Origin: a phage
Sequence record: PX393110.1
Length of the DNA stretch: 64,000 bases
Direction: 5' to 3' (one strand)
The position numbers and the translations under genes were made by a program. Of this stretch, positions 1,367-40,906 are shown in pieces (positions within the stretch are counted from its first letter, which is position 1; every line of letters begins with the position of its first letter). The notes under the pieces were generated by a model. It was given only the letters and a program-made list of their open reading frames with translations, was not told the DNA's origin and did no database searches.

Positions 1367-1508
1367 TATTCAAAAAGAGTGTTAAAATTAGGTTTTTGAG
1401 CTTTACAGGACGCCCCTGCGCTCTAAAGATAGGCCTCAAAAGGGTGTTTTTGTGAAGGTTGTCCGAGCCCCGTCCGGGACGTCTTCAACTATAAACAGGA
1501 GAAATACA

Positions 1509-1982
1509 ATGGGCGAGTTAGCTAAGCAAAACTTAAGTACTATTCAAAAGGGTCTTTCCTTAGTTAATTCGGAGGGTTCTGAATCCGTTAACGTCAAAGC
1601 CCTACAAGGTAAAGAGATAGGCTTACAGATTCTCCAGCTAGGTCTGGCTGAGTCTGAGGCTAACCGAGTAGCCAAGCTTAACGGGATTATCGAGATCCTC
1701 GAAAAGAAAATCTTTGATCCTGAGCGTCTGGACAGACTCACCGAGAAGGAGCAGATCGAGAGATATCAACTGGCATTAGCTAGTGCATCTCAGTCGGCAG
1801 CATTCGTTAAATCGACCATTGGTTCGATTAACTGGACAGCTATCGAAGTATCTCTGCTGAGTCTGGCTTCCGCCATAGAGACTGCCAATGAAGGTCAGTC
1901 TCCTAAGGATCGTAAAGATATGTCTACTATCGCCAATAACTTGATTAAGCAATTGGCGGAAGGCATTGGTCCTAAGGGGTAA
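1509..1982 (+). CDS. putative terminase small subunit
   Basis: ATG at 1509 with AGGAG RBS; immediately upstream of large terminase; 157 aa helical protein. Confidence 0.5.
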   Translation: MGELAKQNLSTIQKGLSLVNSEGSESVNVKALQGKEIGLQILQLGLAESEANRVAKLNGIIEILEKKIFDPERLDRLTEKEQIERYQLALASASQSAAFVKSTIGSINWTAIEVSLLSLASAIETANEGQSPKDRKDMSTIANNLIKQLAEGIGPKG

Positions 1983-1985
1983 ACC

Positions 1986-3812: not shown

Positions 3813-5390
3813 ATGGCAGAAAACGAAGTGGTCTCTAAGCAAGACTTAGATGACAAACCTGGTTCTCGCCAGGAGGTCTTAGCAAAGTTGCTAGACGATA
3901 CCATCACTATGAAGCATAGCGATGGATTGTTGGGCACGGTACAGGCTTACCTTACCGATCGCCTTACCAATATGGTAACCACTCGTGAAAAGTATTTCAA
4001 CGAGCTGGCGAGATTTCGCTATAACTATATCACAGCTGGTATCTATGATATCATCTGTAATGACGTGCTCACCAATACGGATGATGGTGGATTCGTCATA
4101 GAAATTGAAGGTGATGAAGAACTGACTCGGGAGGCAAATGAGCTAATTAAAGCTCTAGCTATCCCAGACTTCCTCACTTCCATTTTGCCGGAGTTACTGC
4201 ATTATGGATCATACCCCTTAAGACCGTCACTGGAAGATGGCGAGGGATTGATTGGGTTGGTGGATGATTTTGATCCTCGTGATGTTATCGCAGTAACTGA
4301 TTCATCCGGCCTTCCTATTTTCTTCTTCGTAAACTATACGACGAAGGATGCTGGGTATATAGACTATGAGTCTCGTCAGAAAATGGAGTATCTAGGCCCT
4401 CAAGAGGTATCTTACCTCTCTCTGGATCAGAACTTCATTAAGCTGCCGATTCCCGATAAAGTCACTGCCCAGATGAAGCGTAAAATCACGGAAGAGCTGG
4501 GTGAAGATGAACCCATGGTTAAGCTCATGGGTAAGTCGATTAAAATTCGTTCGTCCTTATCATTCTTATGGGGATCTCTGGATAAGCTCAAGAATATCTT
4601 GATGCTGGATAAGGTTAACGTCTATAAGACGCTGGCTAACCTCCTAAGTCCGTCTGTAATCGGTGTTCCTCTTCCGAACAATAACGACATTAAGCAGATG
4701 AAGTCTATAGTCAACGACTATGACCAAATCATTAACAGTACTAACCTGTTTGCTGCTGATATGAGTAACCTCCAGTTTAATCTGCAGGATATCGTATCAG
4801 TTAAAGTCGTTCCTATCTCTGGAGATCGGTCTGTACCTCAGATCCTGGATACTGGTAAGTCGGATAACACTATCGATCCGGAGAAGATCAGATCCGAGTT
4901 AGAGGTTCTGTTACAGTCCTATGGTATTCCTCTGGAATTATTCCTTGGAAGCCTTTCCTCTAAGGATAACCTAAGGACGAATATTCGTTACGCTAAGAAG
5001 ATCAAGCGCATCGGTAAGAGTCTGTGTAAATGGCTGCAGTATCTGCTGCTGTTACACTTCGGCTTTAAATACGAAAATCTGGATCTAGAGTTATCTGAAA
5101 TTAAGGTAACCCTGAAGTCCTCGATTAACGTAGATGCTCTTGAGAATATGGAGACTCAAGATCTTCTTATCACAAGTATTAATGGTATGACTGGAATGCT
5201 GGATTCTCTGAAGAACGAGATCGAGAACTCCAATTATACTATTGATAACGATGCTCTGCTTAAGGTAGTCGCGGATACTCTCGCAGATATAGGCTCTCCG
5301 TTCCATGGAGTAATTAAGCTTAAGTCTGAGGTACCAGTAACCCAGCAGACTCCTCCTGCTCCCCCAGAAGATGGTGAAGAGAATGAATAA
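3813..5390 (+). CDS. portal protein
   Basis: 525 aa ORF directly after terL, start abuts terL stop; acidic C-terminus. Confidence 0.7.
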   Translation: MAENEVVSKQDLDDKPGSRQEVLAKLLDDTITMKHSDGLLGTVQAYLTDRLTNMVTTREKYFNELARFRYNYITAGIYDIICNDVLTNTDDGGFVIEIEGDEELTREANELIKALAIPDFLTSILPELLHYGSYPLRPSLEDGEGLIGLVDDFDPRDVIAVTDSSGLPIFFFVNYTTKDAGYIDYESRQKMEYLGPQEVSYLSLDQNFIKLPIPDKVTAQMKRKITEELGEDEPMVKLMGKSIKIRSSLSFLWGSLDKLKNILMLDKVNVYKTLANLLSPSVIGVPLPNNNDIKQMKSIVNDYDQIINSTNLFAADMSNLQFNLQDIVSVKVVPISGDRSVPQILDTGKSDNTIDPEKIRSELEVLLQSYGIPLELFLGSLSSKDNLRTNIRYAKKIKRIGKSLCKWLQYLLLLHFGFKYENLDLELSEIKVTLKSSINVDALENMETQDLLITSINGMTGMLDSLKNEIENSNYTIDNDALLKVVADTLADIGSPFHGVIKLKSEVPVTQQTPPAPPEDGEENE

Positions 5391-5637
5391 ATCTGAGCTG
5401 CTTATGCAAGCTGTTGATGAGTCTGCTGCTACTACGTACACGCTGACTCGCCTTGCAAAAGATAACAGCGATACCGTAAATGGTGTGCTGGATAACTTCC
5501 TCCGTGACGTGCAGATCCACGATGCTGGCGCTACTGCATCTATCGATGACAATGGCGATCTCATAGTAACTACTCGCCTCGGCGATGGTCTGACTTATAT
5601 CATGGAAAAGTACGGCTTCGGCTACACTAAGTCGTAA
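5383..5637 (+). CDS. small head-module hypothetical protein
   Basis: ATG overlapping portal stop; 84 aa. Confidence 0.4.
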   Translation: MNKSELLMQAVDESAATTYTLTRLAKDNSDTVNGVLDNFLRDVQIHDAGATASIDDNGDLIVTTRLGDGLTYIMEKYGFGYTKS

Positions 5638-5649
5638 TAAGGAACCGCT

Positions 5650-7086
5650 ATGGAAGTAGTAGACTCGGTCAATGCTGTTGACTTAGTTGAGGTATCCGAG
5701 GCAGTCCAATTCGACGTAGTTGAAAATGCATCCGAAGTTGATGGAAAATACGTCCTAGCTAAAGCCGTAGGTCCTGCGTTCTTTCCTGGTCAAACCTCTG
5801 GTAATAAAGTTTATTACCCAGAGGCGCTCTGGGAAAAAGTGCTGGCTGATGGGGACGTTAATTCCCGGCTGCAAAACCGTACCATGTTTGGTACGATTGG
5901 TCACGACATTGAAGATATCAATGACGAGGTCATCCGTCGAGGCGAACTGTCTCATATCGTAACTAAACTTTTTGTAGATGATGCTGGTGTAGGTCGAGCT
6001 GAGTATCTGGTAGTCAATACCCCGACTGGTCAGATTCTCAACACGCTACTCCGAGCAGGCTCTAAGCTGCGGGTGTCTACAAAGGCTAAGGGAGCGCTAT
6101 CCCATCCAGATGAGAATGGGGTCAAAACTCTCAGAAGCTACTATCTTAAAAGGATAGACTTCGTACTTACCCCCGGATTCGAGCAGGCACTGCCCGAAGT
6201 AGCAGAGTCTCTGAACAAAATCCGTAACCAACTACCAGATCCCGTCGAGGAGAGTAAAATGGAACAGAACGAATTCATTGAGCACCTTAAGACTGAGAAT
6301 GCTCAGCTGAAGGCTCAGGTTGATGAATCTAAACAGGCCAATACGGTCCTGAAAACTCAGCTGGAAGAAGCGAAGACCCAACTGGCTACCGCTACCACCC
6401 AGCTGGCCGAAGTTAGCGAGTCCCTGGCTAAATACCAGACTCTGGGCACCTTCGAGCAGGTAGATGAGGCATTGACTAAAGGTGCTGAAACTATCACTTC
6501 TCTGAAAGAATCTCTGAACGAGACTATTGAAGAGTCTGCTCACGACATCCACGATCTGGAAGTCGTAGAAGAAGCTCTGGAGAAATATAAAGAGCTGGGT
6601 ACTCCAGAAGAGATCTCTGAAGCTATCGCCACCCTGAATGGACTGATCGAAGAGAAAGAGACCCAGGTCTGCGAATCTCTGGCCAAGAAATTCAAACGTA
6701 GCCCTAACATGATTAAAACCATGCAGACTGCGTTGGGTGGTCTGGATAAAGTCGAAGAAGCTCTGTTAGCCGAAGCTGCTGAACTGGGCATCAAAATCGA
6801 CGAATCCGACGATGGCGAAGATAAAGGCGACGGTAAAGACGATAAGGGTGATGACAAATCCGACAAGAAAGATGGTGGGGATGACAAAGGCGACGACGCT
6901 GATGAATCCAAGAAAACTCCATCTAAAGTCGAAGAGTCTCTGAATCGCGTAAATCGCCTGGGTTCTCTGATGTCTACCAGACAGATCCGTACCAATCTGA
7001 TTAATACTCAGAAAGTAGACGAGTCTGCCGGTAAAACTGCCGACGCACCTCAATCTCGTGCCGGTAAACTGATGTCTCGTCGATAA
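5650..7086 (+). CDS. scaffolding protein, possibly with N-terminal prohead protease domain
   Basis: 478 aa; long coiled-coil segment with Q/E/L heptads; acidic KGDD low-complexity tail; sits between portal and capsid. Confidence 0.55.
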   Translation: MEVVDSVNAVDLVEVSEAVQFDVVENASEVDGKYVLAKAVGPAFFPGQTSGNKVYYPEALWEKVLADGDVNSRLQNRTMFGTIGHDIEDINDEVIRRGELSHIVTKLFVDDAGVGRAEYLVVNTPTGQILNTLLRAGSKLRVSTKAKGALSHPDENGVKTLRSYYLKRIDFVLTPGFEQALPEVAESLNKIRNQLPDPVEESKMEQNEFIEHLKTENAQLKAQVDESKQANTVLKTQLEEAKTQLATATTQLAEVSESLAKYQTLGTFEQVDEALTKGAETITSLKESLNETIEESAHDIHDLEVVEEALEKYKELGTPEEISEAIATLNGLIEEKETQVCESLAKKFKRSPNMIKTMQTALGGLDKVEEALLAEAAELGIKIDESDDGEDKGDGKDDKGDDKSDKKDGGDDKGDDADESKKTPSKVEESLNRVNRLGSLMSTRQIRTNLINTQKVDESAGKTADAPQSRAGKLMSRR

Positions 7087-7141
7087 CAGACTCAGTATCC
7101 GTAAGTGTAATTTGACTTTCCATGATTAAGGACTAATTTTC

Positions 7142-8569
7142 ATGACTAAGCAGAATATCGTGCTGTCTAACGTCGACGAGGCTTCCGCAGATGTAATGGC
7201 TAACGCCTACTTCGACAAATACAGCGAACAAATGGATGCATACGCATCTAACTCCATCCTGGCTCGCGTTAACGAAAGCCTGTCTCCGTTCGAAATGATC
7301 GCTGTAGGTCAGACTCTGGACCAGTACCAAGGTTACCAGAAGTATGTCAACGAATCCATGAGCGGCCTGGCATCTATGGGTGCTATTCCGGCAATCGCTC
7401 TGGATGTTATCACCGCATCTGTCGGTAACTCTATCCTGCCTCTGGTCTGCTCTATCCAGCCGATCCCTGAAGAGCATGGTATTGTTTACTATCGCCAGAT
7501 TAAAGCATCCCAGACCTCCGGCGGTTACACTGCAGGCGACGTGATCCGTGATCCGCTGTCTCGTGATAATCCTGGTGAAGGTACCCTGGGTGCCCAGCGT
7601 CGTCAGCAGGTAATTGGTACCGGTAACGGCAGCGAAACTAACTTCGCCGCTACTCTGGAACTGTATCCGGTTCGTCCGAACATGGTCTTCGTCAACATCC
7701 CTGGTGTTGGTAACGGTCAGGACGACGGTAACGGTAAGATCCTGGGCTTCGGCTTCGATGGTACCATCAACTACAAAACTGGCGCGATCACTATCGCAGC
7801 TAAAGCAGCTGTTCCTAACACTGCTCAGGTTGCTGTTCGCTTCGACGTTGATGTTGATCTGCTGGATAACCTGGATAAAATCCAGGCTGGCCTGATCTCC
7901 AAAGATATCCGTGCGGAAATCTGGACCCTGGCTGCTGATATCGGTACCTTCGCTAACTTCGCCTTCCAGAACCGCTTCGGTCGTTCTGCAGAAGATGAAG
8001 TCGCATCCGATCTGTCCAACGAAATCACTAACGTTCTGAACGTTCGTGCTATCAAACAGATCGCTGCGATGGCTATCGGCGAAACTATCTGGGATCAGAC
8101 TCCTCCTGCTGGTGTTTCCTATGCGGAACACAAACTGACTCTGGTTGATACCTTCGCTCGTGCTGAATCCGTGTTGCACAACAACGCTGGTGTAGGCTCG
8201 GTGAACCGTATCATCTGCGGTCGCTCTGCTGCTGCGGTATTCCGTGGTATGCCTGAGTTCACCCCAGCAGGTCAGTCTGTCGGTACTTCCGTATCTCTGT
8301 ATGGCTTCTACGACGGCGTGCCGGTAATTCGTGCAACTGGTGTTATCGAAGATAACGCTGCTTATCTGATCTGCAACCCGGACGGTTATTTCAACTGCCC
8401 GCTGGCATACTCTCCGTTCATGCCGCTGATCGTTACCGATACCATCCAGAACCCGAACAACCCGTTCCGCGGTACTAAAGCTGCTGGCGTTTGGGCTGGT
8501 ATGACCCAGCTGAACCCGAACCTGGTAACCAAACTGACCTTCAAACTGGCTAACTTCTCTGGTAGCTAA
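7142..8569 (+). CDS. major capsid protein
   Basis: 475 aa; strongly biased high-expression codon usage; follows scaffold; followed by strong terminator. Confidence 0.75.
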   Translation: MTKQNIVLSNVDEASADVMANAYFDKYSEQMDAYASNSILARVNESLSPFEMIAVGQTLDQYQGYQKYVNESMSGLASMGAIPAIALDVITASVGNSILPLVCSIQPIPEEHGIVYYRQIKASQTSGGYTAGDVIRDPLSRDNPGEGTLGAQRRQQVIGTGNGSETNFAATLELYPVRPNMVFVNIPGVGNGQDDGNGKILGFGFDGTINYKTGAITIAAKAAVPNTAQVAVRFDVDVDLLDNLDKIQAGLISKDIRAEIWTLAADIGTFANFAFQNRFGRSAEDEVASDLSNEITNVLNVRAIKQIAAMAIGETIWDQTPPAGVSYAEHKLTLVDTFARAESVLHNNAGVGSVNRIICGRSAAAVFRGMPEFTPAGQSVGTSVSLYGFYDGVPVIRATGVIEDNAAYLICNPDGYFNCPLAYSPFMPLIVTDTIQNPNNPFRGTKAAGVWAGMTQLNPNLVTKLTFKLANFSGS

Positions 8570-12355: not shown

Positions 12356-14155
12356 ATGTCTGCACCACGCGTAAGCTATGCGGAGCGCGATCTGAGTGCG
12401 TACGTTCCTGCTACTGAGACTATTTATGCGGCTATCGTAGTTGATGCTGTTAAAGGTCCGGTAGAGAAACCGATCGTGCCTGGCAATGCTCCCAACTTCC
12501 TGAAAATCTTTACGCCAAATGAGCAAATCGACATCGGTATGTCTACTGCGCACTTCTCTGCGCTGACCGTGTTGGAGAAATACTCCAGCGTGGTAGTAGT
12601 CCGTGCTGCCTCTGCTGATGCTCGCTATTCCGGCGCTCTGGTAAATAACGACGGTACCGTCGTTACCGCCAGTGATATTAAAGATCCGTCTGCAGTGGAT
12701 ATGGACGATGAGTCCTTCCTGATTGCCGCAGCTAACCAGGGTCTTTGGGGTGATGAACTCCGCTTCCAGGTACTCGGCTATAAAGCTACTGAGACTGTCT
12801 CTGTAACTGGCGGTATTCTTAAGTCTACCCAGAAATGGGGTGCTGGTTATCCGGTTAAGTTGGCTGGGTCTAACCTGCCTGCTGAAGTAAATGATTATAC
12901 CACTTACTTCGCAGTTCCGGCTACCGGTGGTATTAAACTGGCTACCAGCCGAGCTAATGCTACTGCATCTACTCCGGTCACACTGACCGTGTCCGATGCC
13001 ACTGGCGTTATCGTATCTCCGGCTGTGGAGTACACCAAGACTCCTAATACCTTCAATCTGCGGGTATTTAAAGCAGACGATCTGGTTAATCCGGTGCTGG
13101 ATGTAATCGGTTCTAAGATCAATGGTCTTAAGGATCCGGACAATAAGTCTCTGTACATCGAAGATGTTACTGCCGACAATATCTATGCTCAGGTGTTTAA
13201 CAACCCTCTGAATACTGATCCGGTAGCCGACATCGTTATCCCAGCAGCATTGGGTGGTGGTTCTAACGGATCTCCGGTTACCGATGGCGACTGTATTCGT
13301 GCTCTGAACAAGCTCAACAACCCTCGTGAATTCGCCATTAAAGTGATCATGAACGGTGGCCGTACTTCTCAGGCTTACGGTTCGGCAATCATCGCTCTGG
13401 CAGAGTCCCGTGCTGACTGCGTCGGTATTACCTCGGTTCCTCTGACTGCACAGGGTGGCGTATCTCCTGCTCAGTCTATGGTTAACTATCGTAAGCACGA
13501 CACTAACTGGGATACCAGTTATGCTGCCATGTATGCGCCTCACGTTAAGATCTACGATCGTTACAACGACCGTAATCTGTGGGTATCTCCGGACGGTGTT
13601 GCGACGAAGGCTATCTTCGATACTGCGTCTAACTTCGAGATCTGGTACCCAGTTGGTGGTAACAAGCGCGGTGTGGTTAACGTGCTGGATACGTACGTAC
13701 ACCTGCTCGATTCTGACCAGGATCTTCTGTATGATGCGGGTATTAACCCTATCGTATTCGAAGAAGGCGAAGGTATCAAGATCTGGGGTCAGAAGACTCT
13801 TCAGTATGCCAGCTCCATGCTGGATCGTCTGAACGTCCGACTCCTGCTGGTTACCATCGGTCCGGCTATCCGTAAACTGTTGGCGAACTTCCTGTTCGAA
13901 TTCAACGATGCGGATACTCGTGCACTGGCTAAAGGTATGGTCGATACCTATATGGATTCGATCATGGCTCGTCGTGGTGTTACTAAGTACGTCACTATCT
14001 GTGATGATACCAACAACACTGCAAGCGATGTGGATAACCATATCCTGAGAGTAAGCCTGCTGGTTTGCCCGAATAATTCGACCGAATACATCCCTCTGAC
14101 TATTGGTATTACCAATAACAGTGTGGACTTCGATCTGGCCGCGGAAGCACTGTAA
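12356..14155 (+). CDS. tail sheath protein
   Basis: 599 aa; RBS AAGGAG; biased codon usage; directly followed by tube-sized gene. Confidence 0.7.
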   Translation: MSAPRVSYAERDLSAYVPATETIYAAIVVDAVKGPVEKPIVPGNAPNFLKIFTPNEQIDIGMSTAHFSALTVLEKYSSVVVVRAASADARYSGALVNNDGTVVTASDIKDPSAVDMDDESFLIAAANQGLWGDELRFQVLGYKATETVSVTGGILKSTQKWGAGYPVKLAGSNLPAEVNDYTTYFAVPATGGIKLATSRANATASTPVTLTVSDATGVIVSPAVEYTKTPNTFNLRVFKADDLVNPVLDVIGSKINGLKDPDNKSLYIEDVTADNIYAQVFNNPLNTDPVADIVIPAALGGGSNGSPVTDGDCIRALNKLNNPREFAIKVIMNGGRTSQAYGSAIIALAESRADCVGITSVPLTAQGGVSPAQSMVNYRKHDTNWDTSYAAMYAPHVKIYDRYNDRNLWVSPDGVATKAIFDTASNFEIWYPVGGNKRGVVNVLDTYVHLLDSDQDLLYDAGINPIVFEEGEGIKIWGQKTLQYASSMLDRLNVRLLLVTIGPAIRKLLANFLFEFNDADTRALAKGMVDTYMDSIMARRGVTKYVTICDDTNNTASDVDNHILRVSLLVCPNNSTEYIPLTIGITNNSVDFDLAAEAL

Positions 14156-14165: not shown

Positions 14166-14690
14166 ATGCCGCCTATTACTTTGGATCAAGTCCGCAATCT
14201 GGGAGACTTCGCCACGATCGTCGACTGGGAATTACAGTTCATCACTGTACCTTCCGGCCTGAATAATCTGTCGGATGCAGTCTTCCTGCGTTGCGAATCT
14301 TCGGATATTCCGAAAAAGACTGGTACTTCCACATCTATCCAGATTCGTGGTCTGGTACCGGTTAAACAGCCTGGGATTTACGCTCCTCCGCAGACTCTTA
14401 CACTCACCTGTAACGAAACTGTGGATAACGCAATCGCTCAGCAGATTGCTAACTGGCGTGAAATGTGCTATCAGACTGGTACTGGCGTTGCTGGTCGTAC
14501 TCAGGATGTTAAGGCGAAACTGCGTCTTAAACGTCTGAATCGTCAGAAAGTCGGTATCTGGTATTATGATCTCGAAGGTGTATTCCTGGAAGATTATGAT
14601 GCTGGTGGCCAGCTGGGCTCTACTTCGGCTGACGTACTGAAACCAGTCCTGACGTTGTCCTACGACGACTTCAAGGAAGGAGCTCTTTAA
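14166..14690 (+). CDS. tail tube protein
   Basis: ATG at 14166 with AAGGAGA RBS; 174 aa; follows sheath. Confidence 0.6.
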   Translation: MPPITLDQVRNLGDFATIVDWELQFITVPSGLNNLSDAVFLRCESSDIPKKTGTSTSIQIRGLVPVKQPGIYAPPQTLTLTCNETVDNAIAQQIANWREMCYQTGTGVAGRTQDVKAKLRLKRLNRQKVGIWYYDLEGVFLEDYDAGGQLGSTSADVLKPVLTLSYDDFKEGAL

Positions 14691-15187: not shown

Positions 15188-16018
15188 ATGATGGAAACTG
15201 TATCTCGTGAAGAATTAGCGTCCCAGAAGGCTTCCGAGGAAGTCGTTGCTGCGACTCCTGTAGTCGATCCGGCTACGTCAGACTCTACTGGTATTCTGAT
15301 TACCGCGGAACAGCTTCCGTCTAGGTTCTTAGCTTACCCTGCTGGTACCACTATTTCGTATAAGCCCTACAGCTTCGGCGAAGTAGAAAGATGGTCCCAC
15401 GGTAAGATGACTCTTGAGCAGAAGATTGAACTAACCTTCGCCAACATCGAAACTCGCGGTATCACTAAGGGACAGATCGTATTCGAAGATCTCCTCCTTA
15501 TTATGGTACTCCGTAAGTTAACCACGTTTTCTAAGAACGAGTGGCGTCTTTCCTACACATGCCCAGGTTGCCAGGAATATATCTCCTCTAGCCGTAGCTT
15601 AAGCGAGATTATCTTCCAGGACTTAACCGAAATAGAAGAATTGCCTATTATCCTCGATCTTCCTAATGGGGATACTCTGGAATTCACTCCGTTTACTGTT
15701 GATGATATGATGGTGTGCCGTCGTATCTCTCCAGAGCGCTCTGCGGAAGTAGAGTTGCCTAAGATGGTCCGTAATAAGACCTACGAAGAAGCCAAGAAGA
15801 TTATCCTCGAGAATAAAGACTCTGATGTAATTCAGGCTCTCCAGATGATCGACGAAATTCTTGACTTTGGTCGCCAGTATATCGAATGTGCTTGCCCTAA
15901 GTGTGGACATAAGGCCGAAGTAACGGTCAAGGGGGTAAGCCAGCTGGCGGAACCGTTTCGTAGAGATGAAGTCTCTATTAAACATCTCATCTCTTTTGGC
16001 AAGAAGAAACATGGTTGA
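15188..16018 (+). CDS. tail assembly protein with zinc-ribbon motif
   Basis: 276 aa; two CxxC pairs (CPGCQEY, CPKCGHK); position upstream of tape measure. Confidence 0.45.
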   Translation: MMETVSREELASQKASEEVVAATPVVDPATSDSTGILITAEQLPSRFLAYPAGTTISYKPYSFGEVERWSHGKMTLEQKIELTFANIETRGITKGQIVFEDLLLIMVLRKLTTFSKNEWRLSYTCPGCQEYISSSRSLSEIIFQDLTEIEELPIILDLPNGDTLEFTPFTVDDMMVCRRISPERSAEVELPKMVRNKTYEEAKKIILENKDSDVIQALQMIDEILDFGRQYIECACPKCGHKAEVTVKGVSQLAEPFRRDEVSIKHLISFGKKKHG

Positions 16019-16096: not shown

Positions 16097-19018
16097 ATGG
16101 TTAGCATAGTTAGAGGCATATCTGGGATTGCTCGTACAGAAGCTACCGATCCGGTTAAGGATGCCTCTGATTACGAGCATGCCAGGTCTAAATTGGAAGA
16201 AGATCTTATCGGGATTCGTTCTACTGTTAAGATACTCTCCAGCAACGATGTAGATGTAGGTCTTAGCTCTGATGAAGTTAAGACCCTGAATACACTGATG
16301 GGTAAGTTTTATGGTAGGGCTAAGTTCTCTACCCAGGAAGCTGAGCAGCTGATCTCCTTAAGAGATAAAGTCGGCCAGGTTGCGGATATGTACGCTACTG
16401 CCGAGGATCAAAAGGCCATCGCTGCAGAATCTTTACTCGACACCTATCAGTCAATACTGAATGACTCTAGACTTACTCGTGGCGTCCGTATGACTGCTAT
16501 GAGAGAACTGAGTGGGTTACTTCGGGTACTTAACGTATCCAATTCCTCACTCAGTACTATCAATATGCGGAAGAATAACCGCATTATTGAGCAAGCTAGA
16601 GCCGAGTTAGCCAACCAGAACGTAAAGATTAAGTATTCTGATACGGTAAAAGTTGCTAACTTAACGAACAGGAGTAAGGATGAGAGGGATACTCTTGACA
16701 GATTTAACATACGTCAAACTGGCCGTAATTTAAGGGACTCGTTCCTTAATACCCCATCGCAGTTTTCCGTAGGTTCTGTCCGCAAGGAAGCACTCTCATC
16801 TGGTCTAGGTGCCCTAGGTTTAGGAGACCTGGATAGTGTATTCGGTATATCTGATAAATTGGATGGTGCTATATCATCCATGTTCCGTAAAAGGAAAGAT
16901 GAACCGGATACTACTGACGAAGAATTAAAGGCCATATCTCGAGAGATTCTTAAATCGGAAAATAAGCCCGATGGAGAATCTTCCACTGAGGCCTCTGCTA
17001 AAGTTGACGGTAAAGAGACTAAGGTCGAGATTACCACTCCAGATGCTACTGTAAATCCAAAACCCAGTTTCGGCCCTACTCCAGAAGAGGAGCAGAATCA
17101 GAAGCTGGATGAGATTAACAATAGCATTCGAGAGTTAATTAATGAGACTAGGTCTGGTCAGGACGAAATGTCCCGTAAGCAGACTCAGCTAATTAATGGT
17201 CAGTCTACTTTGGTGGATATCGACGAGCAATTGGTGTCGGTAACCAGAGCTAATGGAAGAGCTAACCATGAAGAAATTGATCCTTTCGCTAACGAACAGA
17301 AGCAGGGTGCTGCTGATTCTATCTTTGATGATCTTCTCGGTGGTGATGAGCGTGGCCGTAGAGGTAGAAGAGGTCGTGGAAGAAGAGGCAGGACTCGTCT
17401 CGGTCGTGGACTCAGTAAGTTCGGTAGACTCGGTAGGATGGCAGGCGGAGCAGTCGACGCAGCTGCCACCGGAGGACTTGCGAGAGGTGCTGCTCGTGGA
17501 GGCGGCGCGCTTCTGAGAGCTGGTCTTAAGGGAGCTAAGTTCATCCCAGGAATAGGGTTAGCCGTAACTGCTGGTATGGGAGTTTACGATGCTGTCTCTG
17601 GATGGGATGGAGATAAGGCTAAAGAGCTATTCGGTAGGGACGATAACTGGGCTAAGGCTGGCTCGTCGGCAGCTTCATTAGCGTCTGGGTTAACTTTCGG
17701 GTTAGCATCTCCAGAGGATGTGGTGAATGTCGCTAAGTCTGCTGTAGATACTGTACAGAAGACATACGAAGGTGCGGTTAATATTGCAAATAACCTGACG
17801 GCATCATTCTCGGGGATGTATAAGAATGCATCTGACTGGCTTTCCCAGACCGCCTCCGATACATCTAAGTGGTTCTCCGATAAGTATAATGATTCAGCTA
17901 ACTGGTTATCCAGTAAGATGGATGATACGACTAAATGGTTTTCCGATAGTTACGATTCGGTAACCAAGTCCATAACAGGAGAAATCAGTGAATTATCTAA
18001 CTTGGTTACAGAATTTATCAATGACCCTATGAAGTCTATAGGCGAGGGTATTGGTGGATTGTTCGACTGGCTATCAGACTTACCAGTAGTCGGTGACTTC
18101 TTTAAAGGACTTAAGAAAGGAGCTGCTGCGGTATCCAATGGGATTATCGGAGCAGGTGCCTCCATAGTTAATGGCGCAAGAACTGTTGGTGGTATAATCT
18201 CCAATGGTTATGATAGTGCTGTTGATGCTGGTGGCGGTATCCTACAGTCCGCTATGCAGAATGCCTCTCGATACCTCCCCAGCTCTAAAGAGCAGACGGA
18301 GCGTAAGAATAATCTGGCAGAGTATGCTAAGCAGCAAGGAATCGACGATAAAGAACTGGCTCTATTCATGGGTCAGGTTCAGCACGAATCTGGTAACTTC
18401 CGTTATAATAAAGAGCTAGCCTCTGGTAGAGCGTACGAAGGTCGTAAAGATCTGGGTAATGTAAATGCTGGTGACGGGGTTCGTTATAAGGGTCGTGGAT
18501 GGATACAGCTGACTGGTAGAGCTAATTACCAGAAATATGGTAAGATGCTGGGTATAGATCTCGAGAATAATCCTGAGATGGCCGAAGATCCCGAAATCGC
18601 CAATAAACTGGCGGTCGCATACTGGAAAGACCGTGTGCAACCTCAGCTGGAGAAGAAAGGAGCTACTGTTGAAGTGGCAACTAAGGCAGTCAATGGTGGG
18701 TATAATGGGTTAGCAGACCGTGCTGCATACACTGCAGAATGGATGAAGAATGGCTCTGATGCTGAGGCATCTAAGTCAGGAGCTACCCAGGTTGCTCAGA
18801 ACGTACCTCTCGAGGTTCCTAAAGCTCCTACCCCTACAGACGATGTTAATAAACAACGTCAAGATCAGAATAATCAATTGGCTGCTATGGCTGCTGGTTC
18901 CACCAGGAACCAGGATCCTGCTGCTACAACTCCTAACGTACCATCAGTGGTTACGGATAAGAGTGACACTATTGATGACTATGGTCTGGCGTTCTTCAAC
19001 AAGATGGTGTTCTCATAA
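16097..19018 (+). CDS. tape measure protein with C-terminal GH19 lysozyme-like domain
   Basis: 973 aa; Arg/Gly-rich tract; C-terminal QHESGNF...GRGWIQLTGRANY motif of GH19 chitinase-like lysozymes. Confidence 0.7.
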   Translation: MVSIVRGISGIARTEATDPVKDASDYEHARSKLEEDLIGIRSTVKILSSNDVDVGLSSDEVKTLNTLMGKFYGRAKFSTQEAEQLISLRDKVGQVADMYATAEDQKAIAAESLLDTYQSILNDSRLTRGVRMTAMRELSGLLRVLNVSNSSLSTINMRKNNRIIEQARAELANQNVKIKYSDTVKVANLTNRSKDERDTLDRFNIRQTGRNLRDSFLNTPSQFSVGSVRKEALSSGLGALGLGDLDSVFGISDKLDGAISSMFRKRKDEPDTTDEELKAISREILKSENKPDGESSTEASAKVDGKETKVEITTPDATVNPKPSFGPTPEEEQNQKLDEINNSIRELINETRSGQDEMSRKQTQLINGQSTLVDIDEQLVSVTRANGRANHEEIDPFANEQKQGAADSIFDDLLGGDERGRRGRRGRGRRGRTRLGRGLSKFGRLGRMAGGAVDAAATGGLARGAARGGGALLRAGLKGAKFIPGIGLAVTAGMGVYDAVSGWDGDKAKELFGRDDNWAKAGSSAASLASGLTFGLASPEDVVNVAKSAVDTVQKTYEGAVNIANNLTASFSGMYKNASDWLSQTASDTSKWFSDKYNDSANWLSSKMDDTTKWFSDSYDSVTKSITGEISELSNLVTEFINDPMKSIGEGIGGLFDWLSDLPVVGDFFKGLKKGAAAVSNGIIGAGASIVNGARTVGGIISNGYDSAVDAGGGILQSAMQNASRYLPSSKEQTERKNNLAEYAKQQGIDDKELALFMGQVQHESGNFRYNKELASGRAYEGRKDLGNVNAGDGVRYKGRGWIQLTGRANYQKYGKMLGIDLENNPEMAEDPEIANKLAVAYWKDRVQPQLEKKGATVEVATKAVNGGYNGLADRAAYTAEWMKNGSDAEASKSGATQVAQNVPLEVPKAPTPTDDVNKQRQDQNNQLAAMAAGSTRNQDPAATTPNVPSVVTDKSDTIDDYGLAFFNKMVFS

Positions 19019-21161: not shown

Positions 21162-21821
21162 ATGATAAATATGATAGACCTCATGCGCAATGGTCAGGAT
21201 CCTCTGAAGGCCATCCATAAGGGAGTAGTCGTTGATAATAACGATCCTGCCCAAAAGTGTAGAGTAAAGGTTAGGGTTCCTGGGGTACTCGATGGCGAGG
21301 GTATCCCATGGGCCATGCCTATTGCATCTGCATTCCTGGGGGATGGGGAATCTGACCGTGTGGAAATACCAGAAGTAGGTACCGAGGTATCTGTATCGTT
21401 CCCCACGGGAGATCAGCATTTCCCATTCTACACTGGGAGATGGCACTCTAAGGAAGTGCCAGAAGAGTTTAAAGAGAATTATCCTAACAGGTACGGATTT
21501 AAGGATTCTACCGGCACTGTATTCTATATAGATAAAGTGTCTAAGGAAGTTCATTTTAAGCACTGTTCTGGATTTCAGTTCGATATTGACCAAGAGGCTA
21601 ATTGGACTCTCACCACTCCAGGAGGAGGTAAGGTCGATATCGCTAAAGCTCTGGAGATAATCGCCAAAGAGCATATCAAACTGGATACTCCTCTTGTCGA
21701 TGGAACAGGAGAGATCAAGGACAAGGTTCGCAAGATGTCGGAAGATCGCGCTATCTACAACGGTCACGATCATGTTGGCGATAGTGGTGGTAGCACATCT
21801 CCGCCTAACTCTAAACAGTAG
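21162..21821 (+). CDS. baseplate central spike protein (gpV/gp5 OB-fold-like)
   Basis: GVVVDNNDP...RVKVRVPG...PEVGTEVSVSF motifs typical of gpV-family spikes. Confidence 0.65.
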   Translation: MINMIDLMRNGQDPLKAIHKGVVVDNNDPAQKCRVKVRVPGVLDGEGIPWAMPIASAFLGDGESDRVEIPEVGTEVSVSFPTGDQHFPFYTGRWHSKEVPEEFKENYPNRYGFKDSTGTVFYIDKVSKEVHFKHCSGFQFDIDQEANWTLTTPGGGKVDIAKALEIIAKEHIKLDTPLVDGTGEIKDKVRKMSEDRAIYNGHDHVGDSGGSTSPPNSKQ

Positions 21822-21825
21822 GTTC

Positions 21826-22197
21826 ATGATGGTTCAGCCAATTTATCGAGATATAGACCAGACTCTTAAGCGTAACTCGCTTAAGGATGGTGATGCAGTA
21901 TTTCAGTCCATAGTTAATGTACTGAAGACTCGCAAAGGTACCAGAATGTTTAATATGGAGTTTGGTTCTAATCTCGAAGATATCATCATGGAACCATGCG
22001 ACGATATAACTGGTCTGCAGGTTTACGCAGAGGTGGTCGACGCTGTTACGAGATGGGAGCCAAGAGCCCTGTTAGACAGAGGTAAAACTAAGGTTACTCC
22101 TGATCCGGATAATCACATATTCTGGGTAGACTTATGGTTCTCTGTTAAAGGAATCGATGGTCAAGAATTTAACTATGAGGTGGGTCTGAAACGATGA
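21826..22197 (+). CDS. baseplate wedge protein (gp25/gpW-like)
   Basis: ATG at 21826; 123 aa; size and position match gp25-like proteins. Confidence 0.6.
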   Translation: MMVQPIYRDIDQTLKRNSLKDGDAVFQSIVNVLKTRKGTRMFNMEFGSNLEDIIMEPCDDITGLQVYAEVVDAVTRWEPRALLDRGKTKVTPDPDNHIFWVDLWFSVKGIDGQEFNYEVGLKR

Positions 22198-25046: not shown

Positions 25047-25814
25047 ATGAGCAATTATACTGGGGCATTTAACTTCCCTGCTCAGGTGTACCAATTTGAA
25101 GAGAGTGATGTGGTTAAAGGTGGTCCGGACGGCGTTGATAACGTGCCTCTTACCCAGCTTTCCGACCGTACGTTTTATCTTAAGGCTCTTGCAGATTTCA
25201 CATTCCTTAAGCTGTTCAATCTGAACCCTCTCGGATCATTCAAAGAAGGATTCCAGATTAACGTGGCTGGGTATGCAGTCTTCGACGAGGCCTCCGGTAA
25301 GTGGTTTAAGTGGACAGGATCTCTGCCTAAAGTGGTGGTTAAGTCTTCTAAGCCCGAAACTACTGGCGGTATCTATGATCCGGTCACTAATCCGAGCGGT
25401 AAGTGGGTGGCTATTGACTTCAGTGTTCTAGACCTTGGCGCTGGGGTTAAGATCCCTACAGCAGCTGCTCTTGGTAATCTGTATAGCGGTAAGTACAATC
25501 CTGCCTTCGTTAAGATTGAGAATGTCTCCAATCTGGACATAGCAGAAGCTACATATACCCGACTCGGGAATGTAGTTACTGTTAATGGCAAGATCACTGC
25601 TTCTGCTACTGATGCTGGAGAAGTAATGAAAATCGGAATTGGCTTACCTATTAACTCTACCTTCTCAGATGACTCAAGTCTCTCAGGAGTTGGTGTTGGT
25701 GTAGTAGCTGGTCAGATTTATGCCGATGTGGACAGTAGCGTGGCTGTTCTTGAGATTAATCAGGGTAGTACAGACGAGCTGTCTCTGAGATACACGTTCT
25801 CTTACACTGTATAA
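25047..25814 (+). CDS. short tail fiber-like protein with conserved N-terminal anchor module
   Basis: 255 aa; N-terminus shares the GGxDGxDNVP...L.DRT.YL motif with the next two tailspike genes. Confidence 0.55.
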   Translation: MSNYTGAFNFPAQVYQFEESDVVKGGPDGVDNVPLTQLSDRTFYLKALADFTFLKLFNLNPLGSFKEGFQINVAGYAVFDEASGKWFKWTGSLPKVVVKSSKPETTGGIYDPVTNPSGKWVAIDFSVLDLGAGVKIPTAAALGNLYSGKYNPAFVKIENVSNLDIAEATYTRLGNVVTVNGKITASATDAGEVMKIGIGLPINSTFSDDSSLSGVGVGVVAGQIYADVDSSVAVLEINQGSTDELSLRYTFSYTV

Positions 25815-25826
25815 TAGGATATCGAA

Positions 25827-28736
25827 ATGGGTGCTTATCAGGGTAAAAATCAGTACGTAGAGGACATCTATACCTTCGAACGTACTGACAAAGTGTCGGG
25901 TGGAGATGACGGTATTGATAACGTACCCATTAAGAATCTCACCGACAGAACTACATATCTCCGTAGTTTAGCATTGAATTCATTCCTGGATATCTATGGG
26001 GTTAATCCTGTAGGTACTTTCGGAATAGGGTTTGATCTTCAGGAATCTGGGGACGGAGTGTACGATGAGGTATCTGGCAAATGGTATTACTGGCTGGGCT
26101 CCTTCCCCAAATCTGTTGCCGAGAACTCATCTCCGGAAGATACTGGAGGTATTTTCGACCCAGAAAGTAATCCTGATGGGTTATGGACTGAGGTAATTCC
26201 GGTAAACCAGCGTCAGGTGGACATGATAGCTCGGGCATTCAGAGTTAAGACAGAGGAAGTCCAGTTCATGAAAGTAGGTCGTCCTCTCGACGGCTTTCGT
26301 GTACTGTATGACTTAACTTCTCAGGAAGCCTATCGTTTGCCGATGGATATTCCAGAAGGATCAACTGTCGTCAGTCTAACAGCTGGTGGATGGCTCGTAC
26401 ACAGCAATGGTGGGGTGGACTTATCTGCCTATGCTGTTGAATTAGAAGAGTACAAGCACTTTACTGGGGGAGACTTCAGTACTGGCTTTACTCTACGTCA
26501 GAACCACTGCGTAGTTATGTATGACGGTGTTATGTATCGCTGGGATGGGGATTTTCCTAAAACAGTAAATGACAACAGTACTCCCGAAGAAGATGGTATC
26601 GGTGAAGGTAAATGGGTGGCGGTGGGTCCAAATTCCAAATTGCTTTATAACATTACCTGGGATGGATCATATCCAGATCAACCAGTTATGGACGACCGCA
26701 CCCAGAGATTAAATCTACCACTACCGGTTCAAACTAATAAACTGGTGGATGACGTTGTACGTCTGCGCGAGACCATTTCAACTCTGGACGAGAAGGTGGC
26801 TACCGTTGGAAACGATGGTAAGATCCCGGTCGAGCAGATCCCAGCAGTAGCTATAACTGAAACATTTCCTGTCTCGAGCCAGGATGAGATGTTGGCTCTC
26901 AATGCCCAGAAGGGAGACATTGCCATCCGTGACGACAATAGCCTGAGCTACATTCTGATGAATGAGCCAGCTTCCACGTTGGAAAACTGGAAGAAGTTCA
27001 AGAATGACGCTCTGGTGCAGTTAGGTAAGAACGGCGGTGTGAATCTGGTTAGTGGAGCTATCCATGCAGCCACGGATCAGGATTCACTTACTTTCGAGAA
27101 CATAACAATTTCCGGTGAAGTATATAGTCACGACCCTAGCATATCTGGATTGGTTGAAGGATTCTCTGTCTATAACGGTAATTTATATCTCACTCGCAAT
27201 CAGATATCTTACAAGCTGTTGTCCAAAAGAAATAAGTTGCGCTGGCCTGGTCTGTACCTCTCTGGTGTAACTGATATGAAATCTTCGATTGAGGCCATTA
27301 TGAGCCATGGCCTCCACGTTGATCTTGATGGGAATGCTATCAGCGTATCTACCTTAAATATCACCAAAAATCTTTATAATGGTGAAATCATTGCTACTGG
27401 AGATACCGGCTCGTTCATTACTGTGAACTCGTGCAAGCTGCTTAGAACCAGGATCAACTGTAACAATAAGGCTATACGCCGTGCTGTGCATCTGAAAACT
27501 GGTTCAATCCGTCCTACTTTGAAAAACACTGAGATTTTTGACAGTTCCGGAGCTACTAATGCAAATGGTGTCTTTATTGACGCGAATAACATCACCGATT
27601 TCCTAGTAGAGGGCGTGTATGTCCATAATCTCACCTCTGTAGCTAATGGATCACAGGGAGATGCAGATGGTCCGTGCCGTGGGATTATCGTTGGCACGGC
27701 TCTTGACCCAGCGCCATCTGAGGCCACGGTATCTAGCGGAGAAATTAATAATGTACGTATCCGCGACTTGGCACCTTTCGAGGACTGCGATGGTGTTGTG
27801 GTTCAGATTTACGATGCCTCGTCTGTAATGCTTAGAGCATCTAAAATCCGCGTCAAAAACGTTGATACTCACAATGTCAGGAAGAGAGCCGTCAAGATTC
27901 AGGCGAACGATGTCACCGTGAGCAACGTCTATGCTTATTGCGATACAACCGATACAGCAATGTATTCAATCGTCAGTCTATATGGTGATAATGGGTATGC
28001 TGAGAATGTCACCGGACGAGGACGCATCAGTAATGGCATAGATTGCGCTTACGGCTTCAACAGAGTTAGCACACTTCACCTTAAAACCGAACGCACGGGT
28101 GCCGATACCCTTGCTGGGATTGGAGCAGGGTTGCTTATCAACTCCGGGCAAGTGGAAGCCAGTGGTATCTATTCCGAAGGTGCGGAATATGTTCTTGCTA
28201 TCAGGGATGCCCTTGGCGTGACACCTTACGTCAAAGTCTCTGGTCTTCGCGGGCAGGGTTACAGCGGAGTGGCTCGTTTCCAGATACGAGCCGGAAACTC
28301 TATCGGCAGCGTTTACATTGACGACGTTTCGGCAAATTCCTCGGCAACAAATAAATCGGCGATATCCGTAGACATAACGTCCAATGGAATAGGACTGGTA
28401 AATATCTCGGACGTGAAACGACTAAGTCAGCCATTCACCGGAGCAGACATTAATATGTCTGGGGCTGTCACGGAGGCAATTTTCCGCGATTGTATTCTAA
28501 ATTCTGGAAGCTCTACTGTTGGTATTTCCATGGCAACAGGAAAACTGACTGTTGAGAATATCAGTGCCCCTAGTAAGACGTATGCAGTTCAAGCTGTTCA
28601 GACGAGTAATTCATGGCTGAATAATATCGACGGAATAGTGCGTCTTGAGAATACGGCGAACACCAGACTTGGCCTCTATCGCGGAGTTTCTTCAGCTGGC
28701 ACAAACACTGGTCTTCTCACGTTGAATTATGCGTAA
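25827..28736 (+). CDS. tailspike protein 1 (beta-helix-type putative depolymerase)
   Basis: 969 aa; N-terminal anchor module; repetitive N/G/S/T-rich beta-strand segments in C-terminal half. Confidence 0.65.
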   Translation: MGAYQGKNQYVEDIYTFERTDKVSGGDDGIDNVPIKNLTDRTTYLRSLALNSFLDIYGVNPVGTFGIGFDLQESGDGVYDEVSGKWYYWLGSFPKSVAENSSPEDTGGIFDPESNPDGLWTEVIPVNQRQVDMIARAFRVKTEEVQFMKVGRPLDGFRVLYDLTSQEAYRLPMDIPEGSTVVSLTAGGWLVHSNGGVDLSAYAVELEEYKHFTGGDFSTGFTLRQNHCVVMYDGVMYRWDGDFPKTVNDNSTPEEDGIGEGKWVAVGPNSKLLYNITWDGSYPDQPVMDDRTQRLNLPLPVQTNKLVDDVVRLRETISTLDEKVATVGNDGKIPVEQIPAVAITETFPVSSQDEMLALNAQKGDIAIRDDNSLSYILMNEPASTLENWKKFKNDALVQLGKNGGVNLVSGAIHAATDQDSLTFENITISGEVYSHDPSISGLVEGFSVYNGNLYLTRNQISYKLLSKRNKLRWPGLYLSGVTDMKSSIEAIMSHGLHVDLDGNAISVSTLNITKNLYNGEIIATGDTGSFITVNSCKLLRTRINCNNKAIRRAVHLKTGSIRPTLKNTEIFDSSGATNANGVFIDANNITDFLVEGVYVHNLTSVANGSQGDADGPCRGIIVGTALDPAPSEATVSSGEINNVRIRDLAPFEDCDGVVVQIYDASSVMLRASKIRVKNVDTHNVRKRAVKIQANDVTVSNVYAYCDTTDTAMYSIVSLYGDNGYAENVTGRGRISNGIDCAYGFNRVSTLHLKTERTGADTLAGIGAGLLINSGQVEASGIYSEGAEYVLAIRDALGVTPYVKVSGLRGQGYSGVARFQIRAGNSIGSVYIDDVSANSSATNKSAISVDITSNGIGLVNISDVKRLSQPFTGADINMSGAVTEAIFRDCILNSGSSTVGISMATGKLTVENISAPSKTYAVQAVQTSNSWLNNIDGIVRLENTANTRLGLYRGVSSAGTNTGLLTLNYA

Positions 28737-28743
28737 CAGTGCC

Positions 28744-28761
28744 CCCGCTGCTTGGCGGGGT
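28744..28761 (+). terminator. GC-rich hairpin after tailspike 1 (no U-tract)
   Basis: CCCCGC-TGCTTG-GCGGGG stem-loop 8 nt after the stop codon. Confidence 0.3.
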
Positions 28762-28951
28762 CCCACCAACCGGAGGTCAACTACACTTATGAATAAGGTA
28801 TCCATAAAGTTTAGTAGCCTGATTTATGGCAGGTTCACGCTATCTACAAAAAGTGAAAATCATAGTCATAATGTAGGTGATTATGATTTTAACCAAGAGG
28901 AACTTACTCTCTGGTTTGGGAATTAGTATATAATATATTATAGGTGAATAA

Positions 28952-31936: not shown

Positions 31937-32056
31937 TAAATAAAGCTTTTTTACCGTAGGTAGGGGGGCTTCAATTTAAGATTTAACTTAAACCAATTAC
32001 CACTCTAAAGTTACTAAGTATTTGTACATCATGTAATATTTTTATGGAGATCACCA

Positions 32057-34678: not shown

Positions 34679-34702
34679 TAGATTAAACTGAGGAGATTAT
34701 TG

Positions 34703-40258: not shown

Positions 40259-40906
40259 ATGGGCGTTACACTTGACCAGCTGAAGAAGTTCCTCCCAACG
40301 ACTTCAACGGAAGTACTGGAAAAGCTACTGCCTGCCATTAATACTACTATCGAGCGTTACGGTATCAATACCAATCGTCGTCTGCGCTATTTTATGGCGC
40401 AGACTGCTTTTGAAACTCGGGACTACACTAAATTTGTGGAGTCCCTGTATTATACCACTGCGTCTCGTCTGGTAGATGTATGGCCGAGCAGATTTACTCT
40501 TCGTGGCGAGCCTGGGAAGCTTAATGCGACTGCTTATATACGCGATTCAGAGAAATTGGCTAATCAGGTATATGCTAATCGCATGGGTAACGGGAATCCG
40601 GCCAGTGGTGATGGGTACAAGTACATTGGTCGTGGCGCGATGCATCTAACTGGCAAAGCAAACTATCGTGAAGCCTCATTGGATATCTTCGGCGATGACC
40701 GTTTGGTAGAAGACCCAGAGTTAGTCGCGACGGATTTCGAGACGATCATGCTTACTGCAGGATGGTTCTGGGATAAAAATAAATTAAATCAATTAGCAGA
40801 TCAGGACGCATTCACCAAAGTAACCCAGAAGATAAATGGGTCTGCTGCGACCGTACCTGACCGACTGCCTGTACTACGCAGAGCAAATCAGACTTTAACT
40901 CTTTAA
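40259..40906 (+). CDS. endolysin, GH19 chitinase-like lysozyme
   Basis: 215 aa; FMAQTAFETRDY...GDGYKYIGRGAMHLTGKANY motif. Confidence 0.7.
   Translation: MGVTLDQLKKFLPTTSTEVLEKLLPAINTTIERYGINTNRRLRYFMAQTAFETRDYTKFVESLYYTTASRLVDVWPSRFTLRGEPGKLNATAYIRDSEKLANQVYANRMGNGNPASGDGYKYIGRGAMHLTGKANYREASLDIFGDDRLVEDPELVATDFETIMLTAGWFWDKNKLNQLADQDAFTKVTQKINGSAATVPDRLPVLRRANQTLTL

Follow-up and report, generated by a model that had tools for sequence, protein, structure and literature searches.

An endolysin-type GH19 domain embedded in a likely tail tape measure protein of an Escherichia coli myovirus

In phage T4, the tape measure protein (TMP) gp29 runs from an N-terminal coiled coil at the genome end, through a transmembrane segment and a helical bundle, to a C-terminal loop bound at the distal tube; once the hub has detached, the distal part is the first to leave, and its transmembrane region helps to form a conduit in the inner membrane after digestion of the wall by gp5 (bioRxiv 10.64898/2026.03.06.709160). 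Phage T5 Pb2, as cited in two later papers, serves as a tape measure and also has fusogenic and muralytic activities (Boulanger et al. 2008, via PMC4870245 and PMC5380687). Here we describe a gene for a 973-amino-acid (aa) protein in a stretch of phage DNA of 64,000 nucleotides (nt) (sequence record PX393110.1; the whole stretch is called the window below). The protein is probably the TMP of a contractile-tailed E. coli phage; it would set tail length and, by means of an endolysin-type GH19 muramidase in its distal part, would cut the cell wall at entry. The open reading frame (ORF) proposed in the initial annotation of the window was confirmed, with an ATG start:

16097..19018, plus strand: 973-aa ORF, stop codon included; likely tape measure protein with embedded GH19 domain

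Tail-borne lysins, also within tape measures, are well established. Piuri and Hatfull reportedly described in 2006 mycobacteriophage TMPs with lysin motifs, for example that of TM4 with Rpf-like and peptidase motifs. GH19 in mycobacteriophages has been described for LysA endolysins rather than for the TMP. Lytic transglycosylases are also known from enterococcal TMPs (PMC10194240). As proposed here, these mycobacteriophage and enterococcal proteins carry small peptidoglycan-hydrolase modules that are embedded in the tape measure and used at infection, but they belong to siphoviruses of Gram-positive or mycolata hosts and their motif families are different ones. In the literature searched we found no explicit account of a GH19 or chitinase domain in a tape measure protein.

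Two very large myovirus tail proteins with a C-proximal glycosidase domain can also be compared. phiKZ gp181 is a 2237-aa structural peptidoglycan hydrolase (Briers et al. 2008, via PMC5380687), whose domain is listed in that review as lysozyme or lytic transglycosylase and not as GH19. PhiEaH1 encodes a 2222-aa 'tail fiber protein' (1442-8110 of genome stretch L005), whose GH19 domain lies at aa ~1852-2007 and which resembles gp181 in size and layout. Both proteins come from jumbo phages, are more than twice as long as the 973-aa protein and lie in another genomic context. Achromobacter phage Motura carries a 498-aa 'chitinase' (5137-6633 of stretch L013) near baseplate genes, together with a separate GH19 endolysin.

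Like T5 Pb2, the present protein would be a long protein of the tail lumen that has hydrophobic segments for contact with membranes and, near its C-terminus, a module for degrading peptidoglycan; the proposed role in wall crossing and DNA-channel formation is also shared. However, T5 is a siphovirus, and no sequence similarity to Pb2 was detected. The lytic module of Pb2 is reportedly of the peptidase type rather than GH19. With T4 the present protein would share a contractile tail, a TMP order of the gp29 kind and an upstream gene that matches Pfam T4_baseplate; the difference is that T4 has its lysozyme on the gp5 spike, whereas here a 219-aa gpV-type OB spike lacks a lysozyme and the hydrolase is on the putative TMP. 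The locus may be read as a clear example of a Gram-negative myovirus whose lysin is borne by the tape measure instead of the spike. A tape measure with GH19 does not overturn current understanding.

The GH19 domain was identified with Pfam Glyco_hydro_19 (PF00182), which matched aa 750-849 with E=2.4e-9 and 37.8 bits (gathering score 25.5). The best PHROG match was phrog_181 'endolysin', both for the 973-aa protein (2.7e-38) and for a second GH19 protein of the window, a 215-aa ORF described below (6.5e-60); the NCBIfam scan added nothing useful. In a phmmer comparison with solved phage GH19 endolysins, PWe2 9ms7 came first (E=3.3e-23), followed by 4ok7 and others, and the HES...E-x8-E and QLTG motifs of the domain align with them. 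QHESGNF begins at aa 762 (nt 18380), and GRGWIQLTGRANY occupies aa 799-811 (nt 18491-18529). The catalytic residues E764 (nt 18386-18388), E773 (nt 18413-18415) and T806 (nt 18512-18514) are invariant in an alignment of 39 homologues; from what is generally known of GH19, we take the two glutamates to be the catalytic acid and base and T806 to be the water-positioning Ser/Thr. An AlphaFold (AF2) model of aa 725-895 reached a predicted local distance difference test score (pLDDT) of 91.1. With Foldseek, the domain model superimposed on 9ms7 with a TM-score of 0.81, a root-mean-square deviation of 2.3 Å and 36% identity, and all 39 matches at E<=1e-3 were GH19 structures or GH19-like proteins, one of them a type VI secretion system (T6SS) effector. 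The GH19 assignment made in the initial annotation thus passes the Pfam gathering score, and fold and catalytic residues agree with it. Its description as a C-terminal block needs one refinement: the block is C-proximal, and ~87 residues follow, in which a linker rich in Pro, Thr and Gln leads to a conserved terminal motif.

Among orthologues 71-76% identical overall, the GH19 block is the best-conserved region (88%), as against 36-54% in the flanking linkers, which indicates purifying selection on the enzyme module. The domain is intact-looking, and cleavage of peptidoglycan is predicted from its sequence. By definition the 973-aa protein would be a virion-associated peptidoglycan hydrolase, its gene context pointing to a structural protein. 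The closest solved and database relatives of the domain are phage and prophage endolysins rather than chitinases. GH19 proteins from unrelated phages and prophages share 49-61% identity with the domain, among them the PhiEaH1 protein (51-53%), a Va2 protein in the tape-measure slot, Synechococcus phage proteins and many stand-alone proteins of ~190-260 aa; Acinetobacter prophage lysins of ~193 aa are 55-61% identical to it (BLASTP, 80-90% of query). Stand-alone endolysins such as PWe2 9ms7, SPN1S 4ok7 and these prophage lysins have the same fold and the same catalytic residues, but they are soluble lysis proteins of 180-260 aa, whereas the present domain is an internal module of a protein with a presumed structural role.

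The 973-aa gene is likely to encode the tail TMP of an E. coli myovirus. It lies in the tail module, where the following neighbors were recognized:

12356-14155, plus strand: tail sheath (Pfam Phage_sheath_1, PF04984; phrog_23)
about 14166-14690, plus strand: tail tube (weak phrog_4542 match)
15188-16018: 276-aa gene directly upstream of the tape measure gene (Pfam T4_baseplate, PF12322, just above threshold; phrog_150 'baseplate hub')
21162..22197, plus strand: 219-aa gpV-type spike (PF04717, E=1.3e-12) and gp25-like sheath initiator (PF04965, GPW_gp25)

The order in the window is sheath, tube, a 158-aa gene, the 276-aa gene, the 973-aa gene, genes of 211, 125 and 374 aa, Phage_base_V spike, GPW_gp25 and Baseplate_J-like. 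The same gene order was found around a 71%-identical metagenomic orthologue (L006), in Acinetobacter phage Ab1-TPeters and in Vibrio phage Va2. No other tape-measure candidate was present in the tail module when its large ORFs were compared with profiles. The large ORFs at 25827-40048 were rejected as tape measures, since they match tailspike/fibre families or families of unknown function. The spike consists of the OB domain only and has no lysozyme domain; its match to phrog_430 'hub subunit and tail lysozyme' spans only positions 10-124 of the 868 positions of that profile. The product of the 276-aa gene contains two CxxC pairs (CPGC...CPKC), which suggests a zinc ribbon; a role in hub assembly or as a chaperone is conceivable. 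A chaperone pair of the frameshift type was not evident.

A second line of evidence is the 11-residue periodicity of the protein. Four Trp residues (W581, W592, W603 and W614) are exactly 11 apart, an arrangement obtained in 0 of 20000 shuffles of the body, and W658 lies +44 beyond W614. Length polymorphism was observed in the same segment. At the DNA level the region shares 95-97% identity with the deposited genomes of two E. coli myoviruses, vB_EcoM_IME392 (116 kb) and EP_H11 (111 kb), whose orthologues at the same locus (AXY86112.1, 952 aa, and WBU87743.1, 945 aa, respectively; 95-98% aa identity) are 21 and 28 aa shorter. Both lack a 22-aa block made of two 11-residue units (aa 591-612, nt 17867-17932), while two more diverged orthologues (P0003 and P0004) independently lack a different 22-aa block of this segment. 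The two 22-aa units are identical at 11/22 aa and 41/66 nt, the latter value suggesting that they are old and diverged, and Tandem Repeats Finder detected no DNA-level tandem repeat in the gene. According to Belcaid and colleagues, who are said to have reported on this in 2011, 11-residue aromatic periodicity and length variation in multiples of 11 are tape-measure traits. In addition, four PHROG 'tail length tape measure' families match aa ~524-729 weakly (E=4e-5 to 3e-4), and tblastn matches to Streptococcus TMPs, also weak support, reach E~3e-5. Taken together, the tail-module slot, the Trp periodicity, the 22-aa indels and the lack of another candidate in the module support the designation as a tape measure that the initial annotation had given. 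The two Gly/Ala-rich hydrophobic segments and the conserved C-terminal motif, described below, may point the same way.

The deposited records do not use this designation. The IME392 orthologue is labelled 'putative glycoside hydrolase' and that of EP_H11 'membrane-bound lytic murein transglycosylase D precursor', so that the gene was already deposited under a generic name and neither record calls it a tape measure. The present analysis would correct this annotation.

From the genome end to the baseplate end, the order in the protein would be helical body, RG tract, hydrophobic segment 1, 11-residue repeats, hydrophobic segment 2, GH19, linker and anchor. The corresponding features are as follows:

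16097..17347, plus strand: N-terminal body, aa 1-417, predicted to form long helices, with a break at a variable, acidic linker rich in Ser and Thr (aa 269-330)
17351..17410, plus strand: Arg/Gly-rich (RG) basic tract RGRRGRRGRGRRGRTRLGRG, aa 419-438, read from the translation
17438..17602, plus strand: Gly/Ala-rich stretch with hydrophobic segment 1 at its end (aa 472-501; conserved KF(I/L)PGIG motif; Kyte-Doolittle peak 1.41)
17822..17956, plus strand: Trp-periodic repeat segment, aa 576-620, with the 11-residue spacing of W581, W592, W603 and W614
18053..18202, plus strand: motif GGLFDWLSDLPVVGDFFKGL (aa 653-672), then hydrophobic segment 2 (aa 675-702; Kyte-Doolittle peak 1.31)
18314..18754, plus strand: GH19 (endolysin-type) catalytic domain, aa 740-886, from Pfam, PDB matches, AF2 and Foldseek
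18755..18952, plus strand: Pro/Thr/Gln-rich variable linker, aa 887-952; low pLDDT, little structure in the model
18953..19015, plus strand: conserved C-terminal motif ...DTIDDYGLAFFNKMVFS, aa 953-973; 90-100% conserved in orthologues

By analogy with T4 gp29, aa 1-417 may be the protein end nearest the genome. The linker at aa 269-330 is the least conserved region, with 36-64% identity in diverged orthologues. Among the orthologues that are 71-76% identical overall, the linker at aa 887-952 retains 48-54% identity and the last 21 residues 90%; this C-terminal motif is a putative anchor at the hub or the distal tube end. The basic tract noticed in the initial annotation is present, but the range given for it, 17.34-17.53 kb, is wider and includes the Gly/Ala-rich stretch that follows. 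It is not a DNA repeat, as its Arg and Gly codons are mixed, and none of its Arg positions varies among five orthologues (75-98% identity); from the mixed codons and the invariant positions, the tract is constrained at the protein level rather than the DNA level. It might interact with an acidic tube lumen, influence membrane topology or contact DNA. Several antisense or overlapping ORFs inside the gene (e.g. 17200..17544, minus strand, and 17253..17516, plus strand) were discarded, because coding sequence rich in RG and GA gives rise to such ORFs as mirror or compositional artefacts.

To define the family of the body, aa 1-735 were used in an exhaustive HMMER search, which returned only 90 proteins at E<=1e-3 in 1.84 billion representatives, so that the family is a rare one. 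Most body-family proteins are 600-1300 aa long. (A word-indexed search with the full-length query gave 5 proteins only, probably owing to low-complexity words that swamped the candidates.) The region of hydrophobic segment 1 is the most widely conserved part: many of the exhaustive-search matches align to aa ~420-560, and the segment is conserved in the Ab1-TPeters and Va2 proteins. Many distant members also have, at the equivalent position immediately before the first hydrophobic segment, a tract rich in Lys, Arg and Gly whose sequence differs from one to another. A Pfam scan was conducted on 41 proteins, namely the window protein and 40 of the 90 search matches. GH19 was found in 8 of the 41 scanned members, T6SS_VgrG3-like_C likewise in 8 and VanY in 6, while Glucosaminidase, Amidase_2, Phage_lysozyme2 (phage tail lysozyme), NlpC/P60 and SLT occurred in 1 member each. 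Where positions were checked, all enzymes were located C-proximally in one and the same region (tail lysozyme at 663-787, SLT at 684-777, VgrG3-like C at ~630-840, VanY at 974-1051), and a C-terminus of the IDD-x-G(L/I)-xx-FN type recurs in the family whichever enzyme is carried.

The Ab1-TPeters homologue illustrates such an exchange. It is a syntenic protein of 697 aa (6020-8113 of genome stretch L003), annotated 'endolysin' and with no Pfam domain. It shares the KF-x-PGIG hydrophobic segment, a GGLFDWL..LPV.G.FFKGL motif and an IDD-x-GL C-terminus, and the GGLFDWLSDLPVVGDFFKGL motif is kept in it with 49% local identity; judged by these motifs, it is clearly a tape-measure-slot homologue on the same scaffold. 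It has neither GH19 nor the RG tract. In place of GH19 it has a lysin-like module at aa ~466-590 (WRNNNPGN motif), which matches phrog_873 'endolysin' and phrog_7182 'tail injection transglycosylase'. The family therefore looks, in its domain content, like a tape-measure scaffold with an exchangeable wall-hydrolase cassette.

The second GH19 protein of the window lies in a cassette of lysis-type genes:

40259..40906, plus strand: 215-aa GH19 endolysin (Pfam E=8.2e-9, 36 bits; phrog_181), of a different GH19 clade
40921-41337, plus strand: 138-aa holin-like protein with two hydrophobic helices, read from the translation
41341-41571, plus strand: 76-aa spanin-like protein with an N-terminal transmembrane segment, read from the translation
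41420-41629, plus strand: embedded out-of-frame lipobox ORF with a lipoprotein signal ending LSLVSC

The 215-aa protein has no N-terminal transmembrane segment. The ORFs at 41341-41571 and 41420-41629 look like an embedded i-spanin/o-spanin pair; the holin and spanin calls were made from features of the translations. Because holin-like and spanin-like genes follow it, the label 'endolysin' is justified for 40259..40906, and the initial annotation was right on this point, with GH19 recognized by profile.

A mechanism can be proposed if T4 gp29 and T5 Pb2 are taken as models. The protein would fill the lumen of the tube during assembly, with its C-terminus held at the hub or the distal tube end, and tail length would be set in this way. 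After contraction of the sheath and loss of the lysozyme-free gpV-type spike, the distal third of the TMP would exit first, into the periplasm, where the GH19 domain would cleave peptidoglycan locally. The hydrophobic segments would then insert in the inner membrane, forming or extending a DNA conduit. Thus the muramidase would be delivered ahead of membrane insertion, because GH19 belongs to the portion that should leave the tube first, with the hydrophobic segments following and no lysozyme on the spike. Late in infection, the separate and distantly related GH19 endolysin, together with the holin and the spanins, would lyse the cell. In the most economical model, the TMP-borne muramidase replaces the role of the T4 gp5 lysozyme. 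Tail-borne wall hydrolases affect the efficiency of infection, especially with thick or heavily cross-linked walls, and are a source of enzybiotics.

Several points weigh against this interpretation. A folded GH19 domain of ~17 kDa may be a poor fit for the tube lumen, in which case a cavity in the hub or unfolded passage would be needed. The full-length AlphaFold model is mostly helical, but with a pLDDT of 37 it is unusable for tertiary structure, and the long helices of the body are only suggestive. Both Gly/Ala-rich hydrophobic segments, at Kyte-Doolittle values of 1.3-1.4, are of moderate hydrophobicity only. The RG tract is absent from the Acinetobacter homologue and therefore is not essential to the scaffold. 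The PHROG tape-measure matches are weak and lie in compositionally biased sequence, and no tape-measure model of Pfam or NCBIfam matches the 973-aa protein. Tape measure proteins are a functional class and not a monophyletic one, so that these profile results neither prove nor exclude membership. The searchable literature yielded neither electron microscopy nor virion proteomics nor enzymology on this clade of phages, and no morphology paper for IME392, EP_H11 or Va2.

Alternatively, the protein might be a lysin associated with the tail or baseplate, or part of a cell-puncturing device, as phiKZ gp181 was first described, with tail length set elsewhere. The orthologue records speak only of a glycoside hydrolase or transglycosylase, and no curated TMP profile matches; moreover, the PhiEaH1 GH19 protein, annotated 'tail fiber', is found outside an obvious sheath-tube context, and the GH19 protein in the baseplate region of Motura is too short for a tape measure. 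Nevertheless, the gene is exactly in the TMP slot of a module with no other TMP candidate, the Trp periodicity and the 22-aa indels are TMP hallmarks, a separate gpV-type spike is encoded nearby and the model contains neither a beta-helix nor an OB fold. A lysin without a ruler role is therefore rather unlikely. It seems still less likely that the GH19 domain serves another purpose than cutting peptidoglycan at entry, for example as a chitinase-type or glycan-binding module, a structural plug or a vestige, with the wall being crossed by mechanical puncture alone. GH19 does include chitinases and catalytically dead lectin-like members (PMC8547705), some contractile phages have no enzymatic penetration domains (PMC11948020), and the Acinetobacter homologue is without GH19. 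On the other hand, the catalytic Glu pair and the Thr are invariant in what is the most conserved part of the protein, and its nearest relatives are phage and prophage endolysins, not chitinases. Sibling proteins hold other peptidoglycan hydrolases (SLT, VanY, amidase, tail lysozyme) in the same slot, which argues for wall cleavage as the selected function, and the Acinetobacter protein has not nothing there but another lysin-like module.

A tape measure with an embedded muramidase, which we prefer as the reading of the 973-aa protein, raises the question of how the window came to hold two GH19 genes. The initial annotation had placed both in one family. This is correct for the Pfam family, and phrog_181 is the best match of both, as would be expected if they had arisen by duplication in this phage lineage, one copy being fused to the tape measure and the copies then diverging rapidly. 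But the relationship is one of family level only: BLASTP gives the copies 31% identity over 110 aa, and the figure is 24% when the trimmed domain is compared as a whole. These values fit the ~30% identity that the GH19 Engineering Database shows as typical between catalytic domains of the endolysin type (PMC8547705), whereas proteins of unrelated phages or prophages reach 49-61% identity to either copy. For the endolysin these are the endolysins of BcepSaruman, phiRSL1 and Motura (49-54%, tblastn). A bootstrapped neighbor-joining tree was constructed from 156 columns, its stand-alone sample being drawn from the top matches to the TMP domain. In this tree the endolysin groups with other stand-alone endolysins in a clade of 100% support, apart from the clade that contains all tail-embedded GH19s. 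Motura too has one GH19 gene in each clade, the 498-aa tail-module protein and the stand-alone endolysin. Support within the TMP-type clade was low (16% for monophyly of the body-family GH19s), and only the deep split was relied on. The domain tree, which the initial annotation had suggested as a means of deciding between duplication and separate acquisition, thus answers against recent duplication: a recent event within the genome is ruled out by the 24-31% identity and the separate deep clades, and we regard duplication in the lineage, followed by fusion and rapid divergence, as very improbable. As judged from these sequences, the two copies are of different GH19 subfamilies, and the use of GH19 for both entry and lysis would involve two independent GH19 lineages and not a duplication.

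A wider and more tentative proposal, which we hold to be possible though doubtful, concerns the family as a whole. The body may represent a rare myovirus TMP family that acts as a cargo scaffold, with a fixed C-proximal slot, between the membrane-insertion segment and the flexible linker with its C-terminal anchor, into which unrelated hydrolases (GH19, VgrG3-like muramidase, VanY/M15 peptidase, SLT, tail lysozyme, amidase and NlpC/P60) have repeatedly been swapped, so that wall cutting would have moved to the TMP from the spike, its place in T4 gp5. The basic Gly-rich tract, conserved in composition, would then be an electrostatic latch on the acidic lumen, or it would time membrane insertion by setting topology or touching DNA. 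If this were true, entry enzymes of phages might be engineered through the slot. A tape-measure family with such a lysin slot would be a natural experiment on how folded enzymes travel through the tail tube.

Apart from the tail and lysis genes, a minus-strand region at 43602-62706 has the character of an early or replication block, in which these genes were recognized:

43602-44225, minus strand: dCTP deaminase-like protein
45934-46647, minus strand: Rv2179c-like 3'-5' exoribonuclease
47352-48011, minus strand: NADAR domain protein
56517-57485, minus strand: GT1 glycosyltransferase, weak match
58583-59290, minus strand: DUF7217
59925-61868, minus strand: NAD-dependent DNA ligase
61933-62706, minus strand: Pol X/beta-like protein

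A hypermodified thymidine has been predicted in IME392 and EP_H11 by two papers (PMC12686479; bioRxiv 10.1101/2025.03.26.645540), and this modification is probably shared by the phage of the window. Between the tailspike genes and the lysis cassette, a 1014-aa protein (37004-40048) matches only PHROGs of unknown function (phrog_877, E=4e-163; phrog_358; phrog_5986) and is a large conserved virion-module protein that lacks annotation. Upstream of it, a run of tailspike/fibre-like genes at 25047-36154 encodes products of 255, 969, 994, 873 and 484 aa, of which that of 32057-34678 strongly matches a 'colanic acid degradation' PHROG (E=4e-170). Their sequences suggest a multi-tailspike adsorption apparatus with several depolymerases.

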